From assembly GCA_036733965.1 (NCBI GenBank), contig DAIMZL010000001.1:189484-253483 (forward strand): 64,000 nucleotides of DNA. Direction: 5' to 3'. Within the stretch, counting starts at the first letter, position 1. Each line of letters opens with the position of its first letter. Of the stretch, positions 4,396 to 41,360 are shown piece by piece. Under the pieces are notes generated by a model. The model saw only the letters and a list, made by a program, of their open reading frames with translations, was not told the origin of the DNA and searched no databases. Made by a program: the position numbers and the translations under genes. Source of the stretch: Melioribacteraceae bacterium (GTDB lineage: Bacteria > Bacteroidota > Ignavibacteria > Ignavibacteriales > Melioribacteraceae).

Positions 4396-5163
4396 ATGAG
4401 TAAAGTTATAGCAATTGCAAATCAAAAAGGCGGTGTAGGAAAAACTTCTACTGCTATTAATTTAGCAGCATCTTTGGCTGCAGCCGAAAAAAAAATATTA
4501 ATAATAGATATCGATCCTCAGGCAAATTCTACAAGCGGAATTGGTGCAGAACCATGCGATTTGTCGGTTTATGAAGTATTATTGGGATTAAATGATATAA
4601 ATGAAGCTATTGTAAATACATCAATGCCGAATTTGGAAATATTACCGTCTCATATAAACTTGGTGGGTGCTGAAGTAGAAATGGTTTCGGTTGAAAATAG
4701 AGAAAACTTATTAAAGGAAGCTTTGACTAATTTAAAAAAAGAATATGATTTTATCTTAATAGATTGTCCGCCTTCTTTAAGTCTATTAACACTAAATGCT
4801 TTTACTGCTTCCGATTCGGTTCTAATTCCTGTTCAATGCGAGTATTTTGCATTAGAAGGATTGGGACAACTTTTAAATACCGTTAATTTGGTTAAAAAAA
4901 GTTTAAATCCTTCATTGACTGTTGAAGGTGTTTTATTGACTATGTACGATAAAAGAGTTCGACTTTCTAATCAAGTTTATGAAGAAGTAAAACGATTTTT
5001 TGGAAATAAAGTATTTAAGACGGTAATACAACGGAATGTGCGTATTTCTGAAGCACCGAGTCATGCAAAACCGGTTTTATTGTATGATTCTTTGTCTATA
5101 GGAGCACAGAACTATATTTCATTAGCAACAGAAATTATTCAGAATAATCAGAAGACGAGCTAA
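4396..5163 (+). CDS. parA: Chromosome partitioning ATPase ParA/Soj
   Basis: Deviant Walker A NQKGGVGKTS, plus DIDPQANST and LIDCPPSL. Confidence 0.92.
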   Translation: MSKVIAIANQKGGVGKTSTAINLAASLAAAEKKILIIDIDPQANSTSGIGAEPCDLSVYEVLLGLNDINEAIVNTSMPNLEILPSHINLVGAEVEMVSVENRENLLKEALTNLKKEYDFILIDCPPSLSLLTLNAFTASDSVLIPVQCEYFALEGLGQLLNTVNLVKKSLNPSLTVEGVLLTMYDKRVRLSNQVYEEVKRFFGNKVFKTVIQRNVRISEAPSHAKPVLLYDSLSIGAQNYISLATEIIQNNQKTS

Positions 5164-5167
5164 ATAG

Positions 5168-6124
5168 ATGAGTAAATTTAAACCAGGTTTAGGACGTGGG
5201 TTAGATGCTTTAATAAAAACAAGCATTGAAGATAAATATGATGAGCATGAAATTGTTAAATCTTCAGAACAGATAAGTTCTGATGACGGCAAATCAATTG
5301 ATATACTTGTTAAAATTCCGATTTTTAATATTTTACCAAATCCATATCAGCCACGCGTAAATTTTTTACCGGAAGCCTTAGATGATTTAAAGAAATCTAT
5401 TTTAGAAAATGGTTTAATACAGCCCATTACAGTAAGACGTGCCGGAGAAAATAATTATGAGTTAATTTCAGGAGAGCGAAGATTACGGGCTTGTAAAGAA
5501 ATTGGTTTTTCGGAGATTCCTGCATATATAATAGTAGTTGATTCAAAAGAATCAATGATAGCATTAGCTTTAATAGAAAATATACAACGAGAAAAGCTAA
5601 ATGCTATAGAAATAGCACAAGCTTATAAAAGGCTGTTAGAAGAGTGCAACTTAAGTCAAGAAGAGATAGCGAAAAGGGTAGGTAAAGACAGAACTACAAT
5701 CACAAATTTTTTACGACTTTTAAAGTTACCAATTGTAATACAAGAGAGTGTTGCAAAAGAAGAAATATCCGGTGGACATGCGCGAGCTTTGCTTTCGTTG
5801 CCTTCGGAAGCATTGCAAATTGAATTTTTAGGAAAGATAATCAATCAAAATCTTTCAGTTAGAAAACTTGAAAATCTTGTAAAAAAATTTTCTGAGGGAA
5901 CAACAGAAATTAAAATAATTTCTGAAACAAATAATAGAACAAAAGATTTATCTACTTTATCGGCAAGAGACTTAGAAAATAGATTGAGAAATATATTAGG
6001 AACCAAAGTAGAGTGTAGGCAGCTAAAAGACGGGACCGGCAGTATTAATATTGAATTTTATTCGGAAGACGAACTTGAACGATTATTGGAATTATTTGAA
6101 ATTATTGCCCAAAACGGTTATTAA
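5168..6124 (+). CDS. parB: Chromosome partitioning protein ParB/Spo0J
   Basis: PNPYQPR box, CTP-binding box ISGERRLRA and an HTH region. Lies directly downstream of parA. Confidence 0.92.
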   Translation: MSKFKPGLGRGLDALIKTSIEDKYDEHEIVKSSEQISSDDGKSIDILVKIPIFNILPNPYQPRVNFLPEALDDLKKSILENGLIQPITVRRAGENNYELISGERRLRACKEIGFSEIPAYIIVVDSKESMIALALIENIQREKLNAIEIAQAYKRLLEECNLSQEEIAKRVGKDRTTITNFLRLLKLPIVIQESVAKEEISGGHARALLSLPSEALQIEFLGKIINQNLSVRKLENLVKKFSEGTTEIKIISETNNRTKDLSTLSARDLENRLRNILGTKVECRQLKDGTGSINIEFYSEDELERLLELFEIIAQNGY

Positions 6125-6609: not shown

Positions 6610-7314
6610 ATGCAAAATTATTCTGAATGTCCAAATTGTAAAACTCAAAATCCTTTTTATCAATTGGTATGTAAAAATTGCAAAGCGTATGTAAGAGAAA
6701 AGGTTTTTAATATTGATTTTTGGAATACTTTTTGGCATATGTTCGATTCACCAATTAAGTTTTTGCAAAACGTTGTTTTTGCCGACCATAAAAACTTTTT
6801 ATTATTTACACTATTGTTACTTTCGTTTAAATATTCAGTTAACTCATTTCTTTTGACAAATATTTTTAGACCAAAATTGAATTTAACTTCTGATGTATTA
6901 AATAATATGTTTTATTTAATTCTCGGTTTTATTATTATTTTTATATTTTACTCGTTTACTTTAAAATACTTGCTTAAATTATTTAAGGTAGAAACACGGG
7001 TAAAAGATAATTTGGCAGTTTTGGTTTTTAGCCAATCATCAATTTTATTCTCGCTATTTTTTGTGTTTCCCGTTCAGCTTGGTGTTTTCGGTGTTCATTG
7101 GTTTATCTTTAATCCTTCACCCTTAATGATTAAGCAAAATGTTGCATATGCATTATTTATTTTAGAAAGTATTTTATGGGGATGGGGTTTTATACAGATT
7201 ATATTTGCACATTATGTACAAACCAAATCAGTTCTTTTCTCCATTTTGCTTAGTATTATTTTTTATAGCATTATTACTTTGCTATTTTTATTTTTTCCTT
7301 TTATGATCAGTTAA
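6610..7314 (+). CDS. Multi-pass membrane protein with N-terminal zinc ribbon (Yip1-like?)
   Basis: CPNCKTQ..x..CKNCKAY double-CxxC followed by about 5 hydrophobic helices. No family assigned with confidence. Confidence 0.5.
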   Translation: MQNYSECPNCKTQNPFYQLVCKNCKAYVREKVFNIDFWNTFWHMFDSPIKFLQNVVFADHKNFLLFTLLLLSFKYSVNSFLLTNIFRPKLNLTSDVLNNMFYLILGFIIIFIFYSFTLKYLLKLFKVETRVKDNLAVLVFSQSSILFSLFFVFPVQLGVFGVHWFIFNPSPLMIKQNVAYALFILESILWGWGFIQIIFAHYVQTKSVLFSILLSIIFYSIITLLFLFFPFMIS

Positions 7315-10631: not shown

Positions 10632-10958
10632 ATGATTAACTTGGTTAAATTCAAAATTCCGATTCCGATTAAGGTAATTGAATCATTTCTTAATAACCCG
10701 TCTTATGAAATAAGAGAAGAAACAAATACTGTTGTTCTCGATTATTTTGAAACTGCATTAGATATAAAAATTAATCAAAATAGTGAAATAGAAGAAGTTT
10801 ATTGTTACGATGAATTTCTTTGCAACGAAGAAAACTTATTAGGATTTGCGTATGCAATACTACCCGAAGACGGTAATTATGTTACTGCTTTTGATAGTTT
10901 AGGTACCGAATATAAATATGATAAAAAATCACTTGAAGAGTTTTTAGAAGAATATTAA
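10632..10958 (+). CDS. Hypothetical acidic 108-aa protein
   Basis: ORF with GGAG-type RBS (aaggagtaaacATG) 21 nt after the MerR gene. No motif recognised. Confidence 0.35.
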   Translation: MINLVKFKIPIPIKVIESFLNNPSYEIREETNTVVLDYFETALDIKINQNSEIEEVYCYDEFLCNEENLLGFAYAILPEDGNYVTAFDSLGTEYKYDKKSLEEFLEEY

Positions 10959-25834: not shown

Positions 25835-25908
25835 CGGAACGTGGCGCAGCCCGGTAGCGTACTTGAATGGGGTTCAAGTGGTCGTGGGTTCAAATCCCAC
25901 CGTTCCGA
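25835..25908 (+). tRNA. tRNA-Pro (anticodon GGG), CCA not encoded
   Basis: Hand-folded cloverleaf. Acceptor CGGAACG/CGTTCCG. D arm GCGC-AGCCCGGTA-GCGT. Anticodon stem CTTGA/TCAAG with loop AT-GGG-GT (G37). Variable loop TGGTC. T arm GTGGG-TTCAAAT-CCCAC. Discriminator A. Confidence 0.9.
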
Positions 25909-25918
25909 CAAAACATAT

Positions 25919-31684: not shown

Positions 31685-32629
31685 TTGATGAGTTTTTTCA
31701 AAAATTTAAATTTTGATAAATTAGTAAGCGGACTATCAAAGACTAAAGACAAATTAGTAACATTAGTAACCGAAACCATTACGGGTAAAGCTAAAGTTGA
31801 TGAATCTACTCTTGATGAGTTGGAAGAAATATTAGTTACCTGTGATATAGGTTATGAAACTGCTTCCAGGGTAATTGAGAATGCGAGAAAAGAATTTAGG
31901 AAAGATAAAGAACGTAGCAAAGAAAATTTATTAAGTATTATTAAAAACGAGCTTAAAAACGTTTTAGTAAGTAACGAAAATATTAAAACTGAATTTGAAC
32001 TTGTCGATAAATATAAACCTTTTGTAATACTAATAGTTGGTGTTAACGGTGCCGGAAAGACAACTACGATTGGGAAGTTAGCTCACAATTACAAACAAGC
32101 CGGTTTGAAGGTTGTAATTGGTTCTGCAGACACTTTTAGGGCAGCTGCAAACGAACAATTAGAAGTATGGGCAAAACGTGCCGGTGTAGAGATTATTATG
32201 AAAGCAGCAGGAAGTGACCCTTCATCCGTAGCTTTTGATACTTTGGCGGTTGCCAAAAAAGATAACGCTGATATTGTAATTATAGATACTGCAGGAAGAC
32301 TTCACACAAAACATAATTTAATGGAAGAGCTAAAAAAGATTAAAAAAGTAATGGCTAAAGTGTTAGATTATGCTCCTAATGAAATATTTTTGGTTGTTGA
32401 CGGTAATACCGGACAAAATGCTCTTATTCAAGCGCAAGAATTTGCAAAATATACTGAACTTTCCGGCTTGGTTGTAACTAAGTTGGACGGTACGGCGAAA
32501 GGAGGCGTTTTATTCCAAATTTCGGCACAGCAAAATATTCCCGTAAGATATATTGGAGTTGGTGAAGGAATTGAAGATCTTCAGACTTTTGATGCAGATA
32601 GTTATATAAATGCTTTATTTGGTAACTAA
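31685..32629 (+). CDS. ftsY: Signal recognition particle receptor FtsY
   Basis: NG domain motifs GVNGAGKTTTIGKLA, DTAGRLH and TKLDGTAKGG. Confidence 0.92.
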   Translation: MMSFFKNLNFDKLVSGLSKTKDKLVTLVTETITGKAKVDESTLDELEEILVTCDIGYETASRVIENARKEFRKDKERSKENLLSIIKNELKNVLVSNENIKTEFELVDKYKPFVILIVGVNGAGKTTTIGKLAHNYKQAGLKVVIGSADTFRAAANEQLEVWAKRAGVEIIMKAAGSDPSSVAFDTLAVAKKDNADIVIIDTAGRLHTKHNLMEELKKIKKVMAKVLDYAPNEIFLVVDGNTGQNALIQAQEFAKYTELSGLVVTKLDGTAKGGVLFQISAQQNIPVRYIGVGEGIEDLQTFDADSYINALFGN

Positions 32630-32649
32630 TTATTCAAAAGGAGTTAATC

Positions 32650-32859
32650 ATGTTTATGAAGAAACCAAAAAATAAAGTATTTGAGTATCAACCTCGTTTT
32701 TATAAACCGGAAGAAGACGAAACCGAACGCAGAAAACGAAAATTAAAATTTCGTTCTAATCAATCTTTAAAACGTAAAAATAAATCACCGATAATGTGGA
32801 TTGTAATTATTGGTGTAGTTATTTTTGTATATCTAAAACTAATAGGGTATTTCAATTAG
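32650..32859 (+). CDS. Small basic single-pass membrane protein (hypothetical)
   Basis: GGAG RBS, Lys/Arg-rich N-terminus and one C-terminal TM helix (IMWIVIIGVVIFVYLKLIGYF). Confidence 0.4.
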   Translation: MFMKKPKNKVFEYQPRFYKPEEDETERRKRKLKFRSNQSLKRKNKSPIMWIVIIGVVIFVYLKLIGYFN

Positions 32860-32909
32860 TTGTTTTTATAAGGTAAAAGGTAAAATGTTAATAAGTTAGC
32901 GCTTTATTT

Positions 32910-32937
32910 AGTTTACATAATATACATTATAAGACAA
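32910..32937 (-). other. dif-like XerC/XerD recombination site
   Basis: Minus strand reads TTGTCTTATAA-TGTATA-TTATGTAAACT. The central hexamer equals E. coli dif. The XerD arm equals the B. subtilis dif XerD arm 11/11. There are 16 contiguous nt (ATAATGTATATTATGT) identical to E. coli dif. Reference sites are from memory. It lies in the convergent gap between the two gene arrays. Confidence 0.65.
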
Positions 32938-32951
32938 TATAATGTATATTA
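32918..32951. repeat. Perfect 14-bp inverted repeat (palindromic hairpin) overlapping the dif-like core
   Basis: TAATATACATTATA (32918-32931), AGACAA, TATAATGTATATTA (32938-51). It could also act as a bidirectional terminator for the two convergent transcription units. Confidence 0.8.
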
Positions 32952-32977
32952 ATATTTAATTTATTATGTTTTTTTAT

Positions 32978-34789
32978 TTATATTTCAATATCCTTTTGAC
33001 CTAATAGCAATTCTTTTTGATAATGATTTAATATATCAATTCTATTTACTATGCCAATTAATTTATTATTTCCAATTTCTACAACCGGTAAATAATCAAT
33101 ATCGCTTGCTTCTAATAGATTTAAAGAAAAATCTGCCGTGCTATTTTTATTTACAGTCTTAATATTTTTAGTCATAAAATCTTCTGCTACTAAAAATTGA
33201 GAGATTGCGGCAGTCTCTTCGTTTAAGAGTGCCTCTCTAATATCTTCAAAAAATATTTGACCTACTACAAAATCATTATTATCGCAGACAATTAAGGAAT
33301 TTAATTTAATACTTTTTATCTTATTAATTACAATCTCAAAAGGTGTAAAACTATTAACTGTTTCAAATTCTTTACTTATTAAATCACCCATGTATATCTT
33401 TTTTAAGATAGATACTTTTCGTCCATATATATCTATTTCTCTTCCTTCACGTGCAAATTTAATTGAGTATAAAGACCCTTTAAGAATTGACTTTGCAACT
33501 GTTGTGGATATAATAATTGTTAACATTAACGGCAAAATAATTTTGTAATTATTTGTCATCTCAAATGTCATTATTAAAGCCGTTAAAGAGGCATTTGTTG
33601 TGCCGGCTACTACTCCTGCCATTCCTACCATAGCATATGCGCCGGAAGGAGCTGCGTAGTTTGGAAATAAATAGTTTACTAAAAACCCGAATAATGATCC
33701 TAACATTGCGCCTGTCACCAAACTGGGAGCAAATGTACCTCCGTTTCCGCCTGATCCAATTGTTGCTGCGGTTGCGATTGGTTTAAAAATTAGAATACCA
33801 AAAAATGTTAATAAAATATCAGTCGAATACGGAACATTAAAATTAACATATGTAAAACCATATAATCCCGGTAAATATACTGCTAAAATGCCGACTATTA
33901 AACCACCTAATGCAGGTTTAATTATTGGATTTATTTTTTTTAATTTTGAAAAAATATCAGAAATTAAATAAAATACTTTTACAAAATAAACCGCAACTAA
34001 TCCGCTTAATATACCTAAAAATATATAGAAAAATAATTCGATATTAGATGTTAATTCATAAGGAGGAATTTTAAAAGCCGGTTCGTTTCCAATATAACTT
34101 CTTGATATTGCAGTAGCAAAGACCGATGCTATAATTATCGGACTAAATGTCTGAGCCCGAAAAGAGCGCAAAATAATTTCAATTGCGAACAATGCTCCGC
34201 CTAAAGGTGCATTAAATGCTGCAGCAAGTCCCGCAGCTGCTCCGCATCCTAATAAAACTTTTAATCTATCGCTTGAAAGTTTCAAAATCTGACCAAATGC
34301 AGAGCCGATTGAAGCTCCTATCTGAACAATAGGTCCTTCTTTTCCGCCTGCTCCTCCGCTTCCGATACTTATAGCAGTGCCTATTATTTTTTTTATGGCA
34401 ATTGTACCTTTAATTACGCCTGCTTTTGTTGCAACCGCATCAATTACATTTGGAATACCTTCCCCTTTTTCCCCTTTTTCAAAAAAATAAGCAAAAAGAC
34501 CTACAAATAACCCTCCGATTGCAGGTAAAAATATTAATAATATTATTGAAAAAAGTGAAAAATCGCTTATCAGAGTACTTTTACCGATAATCTTTGCAGG
34601 AAAATCGTAAAAAAGATGTTTAATAATTTCAATTGTGTGATGAAATATAATTGCACCGATTCCTGCTAAAACACCTGTTATACCTCCTAATACTAAAAGA
34701 TACGATTCTTGTGAAAAAGATATTTGGGAAAATAACTTGTCAAGCTTAAAACGAATATTCGGTAAATTTTTATAGTTGAAATTTAACAA
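32978..34789 (-). CDS. ClC-family chloride channel/antiporter with C-terminal CBS pair
   Basis: Selectivity-filter motifs GSGIP-like GEGIPN, GKEGPIVQIG and GGTFAPSL. Two CBS modules in the last ~150 aa. Confidence 0.88.
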   Translation of the reverse strand: MLNFNYKNLPNIRFKLDKLFSQISFSQESYLLVLGGITGVLAGIGAIIFHHTIEIIKHLFYDFPAKIIGKSTLISDFSLFSIILLIFLPAIGGLFVGLFAYFFEKGEKGEGIPNVIDAVATKAGVIKGTIAIKKIIGTAISIGSGGAGGKEGPIVQIGASIGSAFGQILKLSSDRLKVLLGCGAAAGLAAAFNAPLGGALFAIEIILRSFRAQTFSPIIIASVFATAISRSYIGNEPAFKIPPYELTSNIELFFYIFLGILSGLVAVYFVKVFYLISDIFSKLKKINPIIKPALGGLIVGILAVYLPGLYGFTYVNFNVPYSTDILLTFFGILIFKPIATAATIGSGGNGGTFAPSLVTGAMLGSLFGFLVNYLFPNYAAPSGAYAMVGMAGVVAGTTNASLTALIMTFEMTNNYKIILPLMLTIIISTTVAKSILKGSLYSIKFAREGREIDIYGRKVSILKKIYMGDLISKEFETVNSFTPFEIVINKIKSIKLNSLIVCDNNDFVVGQIFFEDIREALLNEETAAISQFLVAEDFMTKNIKTVNKNSTADFSLNLLEASDIDYLPVVEIGNNKLIGIVNRIDILNHYQKELLLGQKDIEI

Positions 34790-41057: not shown

Positions 41058-41360
41058 TTAACGAATATTAGCCATTTTTTTTGTCTTAACTTTTCGTAAC
41101 TGACGGACTAATTTTTCAGTAGCAAGAGAAACCGATTTTTCAAATTCTTCCGTAGTTTCCGAAACAGAGAGTGTTTTACCCGGAATTTTAATCACAATTT
41201 CCGAAGTTTTTTCACTTTCTTTTAAGTGTGTAAAGCTAAGTATTACGTTTGCCTCCAGTATTTCATCATTATACTTTTCTAAAGAGGAAACTTCATTTTT
41301 GATAAAATCTTTTAGGGAATCTTTAGCCCTAAATTTTCTGGATGTGATTTGAATGTTCAT
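41058..41360 (-). CDS. hpf: Ribosome hibernation promoting factor (short HPF/RaiA)
   Basis: 100-aa sigma54-modulation/S30EA fold pattern (MNIQITSRKFRAKDSLKDFI...LRKVK). Confidence 0.85.
   Translation of the reverse strand: MNIQITSRKFRAKDSLKDFIKNEVSSLEKYNDEILEANVILSFTHLKESEKTSEIVIKIPGKTLSVSETTEEFEKSVSLATEKLVRQLRKVKTKKMANIR

Follow-up and report, generated by a model that had tools for sequence, protein, structure and literature searches.

The window analysed here is a stretch of 64,000 nt whose closest assemblies are MAGs of Melioribacteraceae and Ignavibacteriaceae. Two arrays of genes converge on an intergenic gap (Table 1) that is bounded on the left by ftsY followed by a small membrane ORF, and on the right by genes for a ClC channel with CBS domains, a 3-hydroxybutyryl-CoA dehydrogenase (hbd), a thiolase, a PSP1-domain protein, HolB, an M23 peptidase and an HPr kinase, followed by hpf, xer and topA. 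The genes flanking the gap are ordinary core genes. The small ORF downstream of ftsY has no match in Pfam or NCBIfam; its C-terminal coding end is recognisable in three related loci (L007, L008 and L010), and a member of its protein cluster has been named 'uncharacterized membrane protein (DUF106 family)' by one source.

Two further features of the window deserve mention. Only about 27 kb separate a chromosomal-type parA/parB pair from the point at which the skew switches, where the 28-nt site described below is also found. Chromosomal pairs of this kind usually adjoin oriC. No match to the parS consensus TGTTTCACGTGAAACA with up to three mismatches was detected in the window. An Rfam scan of the whole window returned a tRNA-Pro gene only. 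This gene overlaps the mechanically called GTG start (25841) of a 535-aa ORF with a glutamine-amidotransferase domain (GATase_6/7), so that the true start of the latter must lie downstream.

Table 1. Coordinates of the features discussed in the text, counted from the first nucleotide of the 64-kb window.
Feature	Position	Strand	Remarks
parA	4396-5163	+	Pfam AAA_31/CbiA
parB	5168-6124	+	Pfam ParB_N, HTH_ParB, ParB_C; NCBIfam parB_part 179 bits (cut-off 58)
tRNA-Pro(GGG)	25835-25909	+	Only RNA gene in the window
69-aa ORF with hydrophobic C-terminal stretch	32650-32859	+	Directly downstream of ftsY; ends 50 nt from the 28-nt site
Convergent intergenic gap, 118 nt	32860-32977		GC-skew and gene-orientation switch (replichore junction)
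28-nt site, very probably dif	32910-32937	-	TTGTCTTATAA-TGTATA-TTATGTAAACT; 11-6-11 layout
Putative XerD-binding arm TTATGTAAACT	32910-32920	-	11/11 with the arms of B. subtilis, Chlorobium chlorochromatii (predicted) and Bacteroides vulgatus (predicted)
Central region (strand-exchange hexamer) TGTATA	32921-32926	-	Same as the centre of E. coli dif
Putative XerC-binding arm TTGTCTTATAA	32927-32937	-	Placed by lining up the 11-6-11 layout with that of E. coli and B. subtilis dif
Perfect inverted repeat, 14-nt arms, 6-nt loop	32918-32951 (arms 32918-32931 and 32938-32951)		Species-specific
hpf (ribosome hibernation factor)	41058-41360	-	8 nt after xer, in another frame
Xer-family tyrosine recombinase, 296 aa	41369-42259	-	Closer to XerC than to XerD; presumed partner of one dif arm

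Strand composition and gene orientation around the gap

The GC skew, calculated in 2-kb windows, changes sign between 32 and 34 kb. Over the first 33 kb it stays mostly at about +0.16 to +0.27, falling briefly at 6-9 and 11-13 kb; over the rest of the window it runs at about -0.09 to -0.21. The cumulative G-C curve, of which the 64-kb window can give a local extremum, reaches its maximum at 32899, 11 nt off the 28-nt site. The orientation of the genes switches in the same gap: in a greedy map of long ORFs, 31 genes on the plus strand and three on the minus strand lie to the left of the site, and none on the plus strand and 30 on the minus strand to the right, 61 of the 64 genes (about 95%) being co-oriented with replication. 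The joint switch of genes and skew indicates that forks and genes converge on the gap, as they do at a terminus and not at an origin; the word terminus is used here for the switch point of strand composition and gene orientation, since the meeting place of the forks is not readable from sequence. The skew check suggested with the original prediction therefore came out in its favour. Its statement that no other convergent gap of this size exists in the window also holds, as at the two remaining plus-to-minus junctions (7288-7314 and 10955-10958) the genes overlap and leave no gap.

Both A and G are in excess on the leading strand, the AT skew being about +0.05 to +0.1 (positions 1-64000). Such a purine asymmetry is usually tied to Firmicutes-like genomes; in the window it may simply follow the gene-strand bias.

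We also searched the window for polar motifs of the kind that guide DNA translocases in other bacteria. The E. coli KOPS GGGNAGGG is essentially absent from the window (one occurrence) and the B. subtilis SpoIIIE/FtsK recognition motif GAGAAGGG has no match in it. The Lactococcus lactis motif GAAGAAG occurs 18 times in the forward and five times in the reverse orientation, a bias no stronger than base composition alone would give (a forward share of about 0.8, by a hand estimate using the skews of the two arms). The most skewed 6- to 8-mers found de novo are AT-rich words, a result confounded by gene orientation; because 61 of the 64 genes are co-oriented with replication, these words are most simply explained by codon usage.

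Sequence and conservation of the 28-nt site

The plus strand of the site reads AGTTTACATAATATACATTATAAGACAA and its reverse complement TTGTCTTATAA-TGTATA-TTATGTAAACT, that is, 28 nt made up of two 11-nt arms and a 6-nt centre, with the inner ATAA and TTAT of dif sites. Compared as inverted repeats, the two arms have 5 of 11 positions in common. This asymmetry, together with the contrast between an arm that does not vary across phyla and one that is lineage-specific, is the pattern of a dif site served by two recombinases.

The experimentally validated dif sites of E. coli (GGTGCGCATAATGTATATTATGTTAAAT) and B. subtilis (ACTTCCTAGAATATATATTATGTAAACT) were taken from Kono et al. (2011, BMC Genomics 12:19, PMC3025954). 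The site of the window is identical to E. coli dif (GGTGCGCATAA-TGTATA-TTATGTTAAAT) at 20 of 28 positions, including the whole central hexamer (6/6), and the longest identical run, of 16 nt, consists of ATAA, the centre and TTATGT. Like the site of the window, E. coli dif sits at the replichore junction; the differences are concentrated in the arms, with 5/11 matches in the XerC arm and 9/11 in the XerD arm. B. subtilis dif (ACTTCCTAGAA-TATATA-TTATGTAAACT), also of 28 nt with an 11-6-11 layout, is identical at 22 of 28 positions, with 11/11 in the XerD arm and 5/6 in the centre but only 6/11 in the XerC arm, and belongs to another phylum. The original prediction had read the minus strand as an 11-6-11 element and had quoted both reference sites. 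Re-reading gave the same letters, the two reference sequences are printed identically in the published source, and the claimed E. coli hexamer, 11/11 B. subtilis XerD arm and 16-nt E. coli run were all recovered by recomputation.

The closest counterpart is the dif site predicted computationally in Chlorobium chlorochromatii CaD3, TTGTTGTATAATATATATTATGTAAACT (supplementary table of Kono et al., 2011, PMC3025954). It is identical to the site of the window at 25 of 28 positions, the TTGT of the outer XerC arm and the entire XerD arm (11/11) being common to both. The XerC arm of the window matches the predicted Chlorobi arm TTGTTGTATAA at 9 of 11 positions, with CT and not TG at positions 5-6, and the centre is TGTATA, as in E. 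coli, versus TATATA or TATAAA in the predicted Chlorobi sites. Both the predicted Chlorobi sites and the site of the window lie at a GC-skew shift point. In the same study, dif was predicted in all 11 Chlorobi and all 19 Bacteroidetes genomes, and the Firmicutes profile was the best fit for Chlorobi (Kono et al., 2011, PMC3025954). Ignavibacteriota are placed within the Bacteroidota/Chlorobiota group (NCBI taxonomy), and similarity to Chlorobi dif is therefore what descent predicts. Our literature search found no paper pairing 'dif site' with Ignavibacteria.

Chance expectations were computed from the strand-symmetrised base composition of the window itself. For the 17 nt of the centre plus XerD arm, they amount to 1.7e-4 per 64 kb and 9e-3 per 3.5 Mb, and for the 21 nt that also include ATAA to 2e-6 per window and 1.3e-4 per 3.5 Mb. 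The earlier rough figure for the 17-mer, well below 0.01 per few Mb, was thus slightly optimistic: the recomputed value lies below 0.01, but only just. The 28-mer has a single match in the window with up to three mismatches, and none of 100 shuffled sequences contained any match. The next-best matches in the window have nine mismatches to the 28-mer and four to the 21-nt core, and no second dif-like site or IMEX boundary was detected in the 64 kb.

A scan for the exact 28-mer, run on one genome per species (GTDB representatives), returned 10 loci, each in a different draft assembly and each present as one copy on a single contig. These assemblies are mostly MAGs labelled Ignavibacteriaceae, Melioribacteraceae, Ignavibacteriales or Ignavibacteriae, and two are labelled only 'Bacteroidetes bacterium'. 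The flanks of the 10 loci have nothing in common, the divergence starting at the first base next to the site, and the adjoining genes vary, with the end of the ClC gene in L007 and L008, the end of hbd in L003 and L009, and other genes elsewhere; as the loci were chosen by exact match, they set 28 nt as the upper limit of the conserved block and do not demonstrate that every position is constrained. One locus with the exact Ignavibacteria-type 28-mer, L004 (CBFIDI010000098.1, 3035 nt), comes from a 'permissive' Rickettsiales bin, in which it is probably a binning contaminant.

Relatives were also retrieved through the neighbouring ClC protein, independently of the DNA motif. In both informative loci the site follows just after the ClC stop codon. 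It is exact in L012, whose ClC protein is 87% identical to that of the window, and in L013 (ClC 61% identical) it reads TTGTCCGATAATGTATATTATGTAAACT, 60 nt past the stop, with 26 of 28 positions identical and both changes in the XerC arm, which becomes TTGTCCGATAA. Within the species, a comparison of six contigs drawn from different samples revealed two polymorphisms in the gap and none in the site. The 674-kb JGI contig Ga0531113_000006 has both the site and an identical xer gene. The sequence is thus conserved independently of its flanks, and the check on conservation proposed with the original prediction bore it out; that on copy number gave a single copy in the 64-kb window and in each of the 10 draft assemblies. 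The strand-composition switch recurs as well: in every one of the 10 relatives retrieved by the motif, GC skew passes from positive on the left of the site to negative on its right, and in all of 12 loci but one, the 3-kb contig L004, the cumulative maximum lies at most 70 nt from the site. The location of the site at a terminus is accordingly marked by the local skew maximum and the gene switch in the window and by the same arrangement in relatives.

In the source species, a perfect inverted repeat extends over the inner XerC arm and the centre and takes in 3 nt of the XerD arm, its loop being formed by the outer XerC arm. Folded as an RNA hairpin, it has predicted energies of -12.2 kcal/mol (z = -2.2) on one strand and -13.1 kcal/mol (z = -3.1) on the other. 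The repeat is present in the six contigs of the same species (L019-L024) and absent from L001-L010, L012 and L013, that is, from all other species examined, and we rejected it as a part of the functional or conserved site. This 34-nt palindrome creates, head-to-head with the site, a second 'ATAA plus TGTATA' half-site without a XerD arm. A weak bidirectional terminator or the scar of a Xer-mediated event are possible readings of it.

The Xer recombinase and alternative readings of the site

The Xer-family gene announced by the original prediction at 8.4 kb from the site is real, and the distance is right. Its product scores 302 bits with the NCBIfam XerC model TIGR02224 (cut-off 335) and 257 bits with the XerD model TIGR02225 (cut-off 330), below the equivalog cut-offs of both. 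Public names differ too: the protein itself is called XerC, and XerD is the name given to another protein of its 90% identity cluster. Searches of the PDB point to E. coli XerD (1a0p, E = 2e-39) and to XerH and XerA (E = 3e-20 to 4e-23). The catalytic residues R151, H242-x-x-R245, H268 and Y277 are kept, from which the recombinase is predicted to be catalytically intact. The gene lies directly downstream of topA; codV of B. subtilis likewise lies a short way downstream of topA. No second Xer was detected in six-frame translations of the window or of 290 kb of related loci, and no FtsK is found among the annotated genes of the 64-kb window; the window represents about 2% of a typical genome, so that the absence of a XerD is expected and these absences say little.

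The best PDB match of the recombinase is chain 14 of entry 9i5v, a 401-residue protein of Porphyromonas gingivalis deposited as 'RaiA'. Residues 6-296 of this chain align to Xer and residues 307-399 to HPF, indicating a fused Xer-HPF ORF. The paper on 9i5v calls the chain only RaiA, and a text search of it returned no 'recombinase', 'XerC' or 'fusion'.

A true dimer-resolution site at the terminus could also be served by a single Xer acting on both arms, in the style of XerS/difSL of streptococci, XerH/difH of Helicobacter and Campylobacter or the archaeal XerA/dif, which do the same biological job with recombinases of the tyrosine family. The presence of only one Xer gene in the window and the 290 kb of related loci, its scores under both the XerC and the XerD cut-offs, and the naming of near-identical cluster members as XerC or XerD by different sources would all fit such a system. 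We nevertheless regard it as unlikely, since the strong asymmetry of the arms, the 11/11 identity of the XerD arm with that of B. subtilis, a two-recombinase organism, and the small fraction of the genome in which a XerD could have been seen all argue against it. Moreover, the genomes of Kono et al. (2011, PMC3025954) were picked by XerCD conservation and include 11 Chlorobi with near-identical predicted dif sites. Unlike the sites of single-recombinase systems, that of the window is a classical asymmetric one and its gene is not adjacent, whereas difSL adjoins xerS; the XerS model NF003462 gives 95 bits, far under its cut-off of 267. A site of the XerS/difSL type proper (about 31 nt, adjoining xerS) was rejected on the same grounds of length, distance and score.

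A variant that joins several of these observations supposes that a single Xer, whose gene is tightly linked to hpf in the window and fused with it in the ORF deposited for P. gingivalis, serves a classical asymmetric dif site, to which in this species the 34-nt palindrome adds a second XerC half-site and centre. We consider this combination very unlikely. If it were real, dimer resolution could be tied to growth arrest, and the second XerC half-site and centre could modulate the loading of Xer.

Dif-like sites also occur on mobile DNA, and the site might in principle belong to a Xer-exploiting integrative element (IMEX or phage), as its attachment site or junction, and not be the primary dif of the host. 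In seven IMG/VR viral contigs (L027-L033, 33-53% G+C) the 21-nt core ATAATGTATATTATGTAAACT is combined with differing XerC arms, one of these contigs (L029) matching the site of the window at 27 of 28 positions; they may represent integrative elements that make use of Xer, or host DNA at the ends of prophages. The partial inverted copy of the inner XerC arm and centre beside the site in this species could be seen in the same light. The exact 28-mer is, however, absent from viral contigs, the 64 kb hold no second dif-like site that could bound an element, and the flanks are housekeeping genes (ftsY, ClC channel, hbd, thiolase, holB, topA and a fab cluster). As the site also coincides with the switch of skew in 11 lineages, whose neighbouring genes differ, an element boundary appears extremely improbable. 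The remaining reading, a chance AT-rich near-palindrome or a plain bidirectional transcription-terminator hairpin in a convergent gap, would draw on the low G+C content of the genome (30%) and on the overlap with the perfect 14-nt inverted repeat folding at -12 to -13 kcal/mol. Against it stand the very low expectation for the 21-nt core, a terminator scan of positions 32500-33200 with no terminator-like site, and the fact that the 28-mer is kept exactly across species and the inverted repeat is not; a selected hairpin should tolerate compensatory changes, but the sequence is invariant in 10 other assemblies. Invariance across species with unrelated flanks excludes chance or a plain terminator hairpin, and we give this reading next to no weight.

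Proposed role of the site and its implications

The site itself, its uniqueness in the window, its conservation, its position at the skew and gene switch and one intact Xer gene nearby were all directly seen. We conclude that the 28-nt site is very probably the chromosomal dif of an Ignavibacteriota bacterium, located at the junction of the two replichores. The original prediction of a dif site at the replication terminus is supported, and the observation behind it is confirmed.

E. coli dif is acted on by XerC, XerD and FtsK, and B. subtilis dif by CodV (XerC) and RipX (XerD). The mechanism proposed here is carried over from these two well-studied systems. Once homologous recombination has linked the sister chromosomes as a dimer, the two copies of dif would meet at the division septum. 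A XerC-type recombinase would bind the variable arm TTGTCTTATAA and a XerD-type recombinase the highly conserved arm TTATGTAAACT. FtsK, moving towards dif at the septum, would then activate XerD, leading to the exchange of a first pair of strands at the borders of TGTATA, after which XerC would exchange the second pair and resolve the Holliday junction into two monomers. By analogy with the same systems, we infer how the arms are assigned to their proteins, that this genome encodes XerD and FtsK, and in what order the strands are exchanged.

The site belongs to a well-described kind of dif, is expected in such a genome and could be found by existing methods; the understanding of Xer and dif is unchanged by it. 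It extends the known near-invariance of the XerD arm to another phylum and, as a dif site, would provide a precise landmark of the replication terminus in an uncultured lineage of Ignavibacteriota. Such a landmark helps to orient and close MAG assemblies and to check the balance of the replichores, serves coverage-based estimates of growth rate that need the positions of both the origin and the terminus, and helps the search for mobile elements that exploit Xer.
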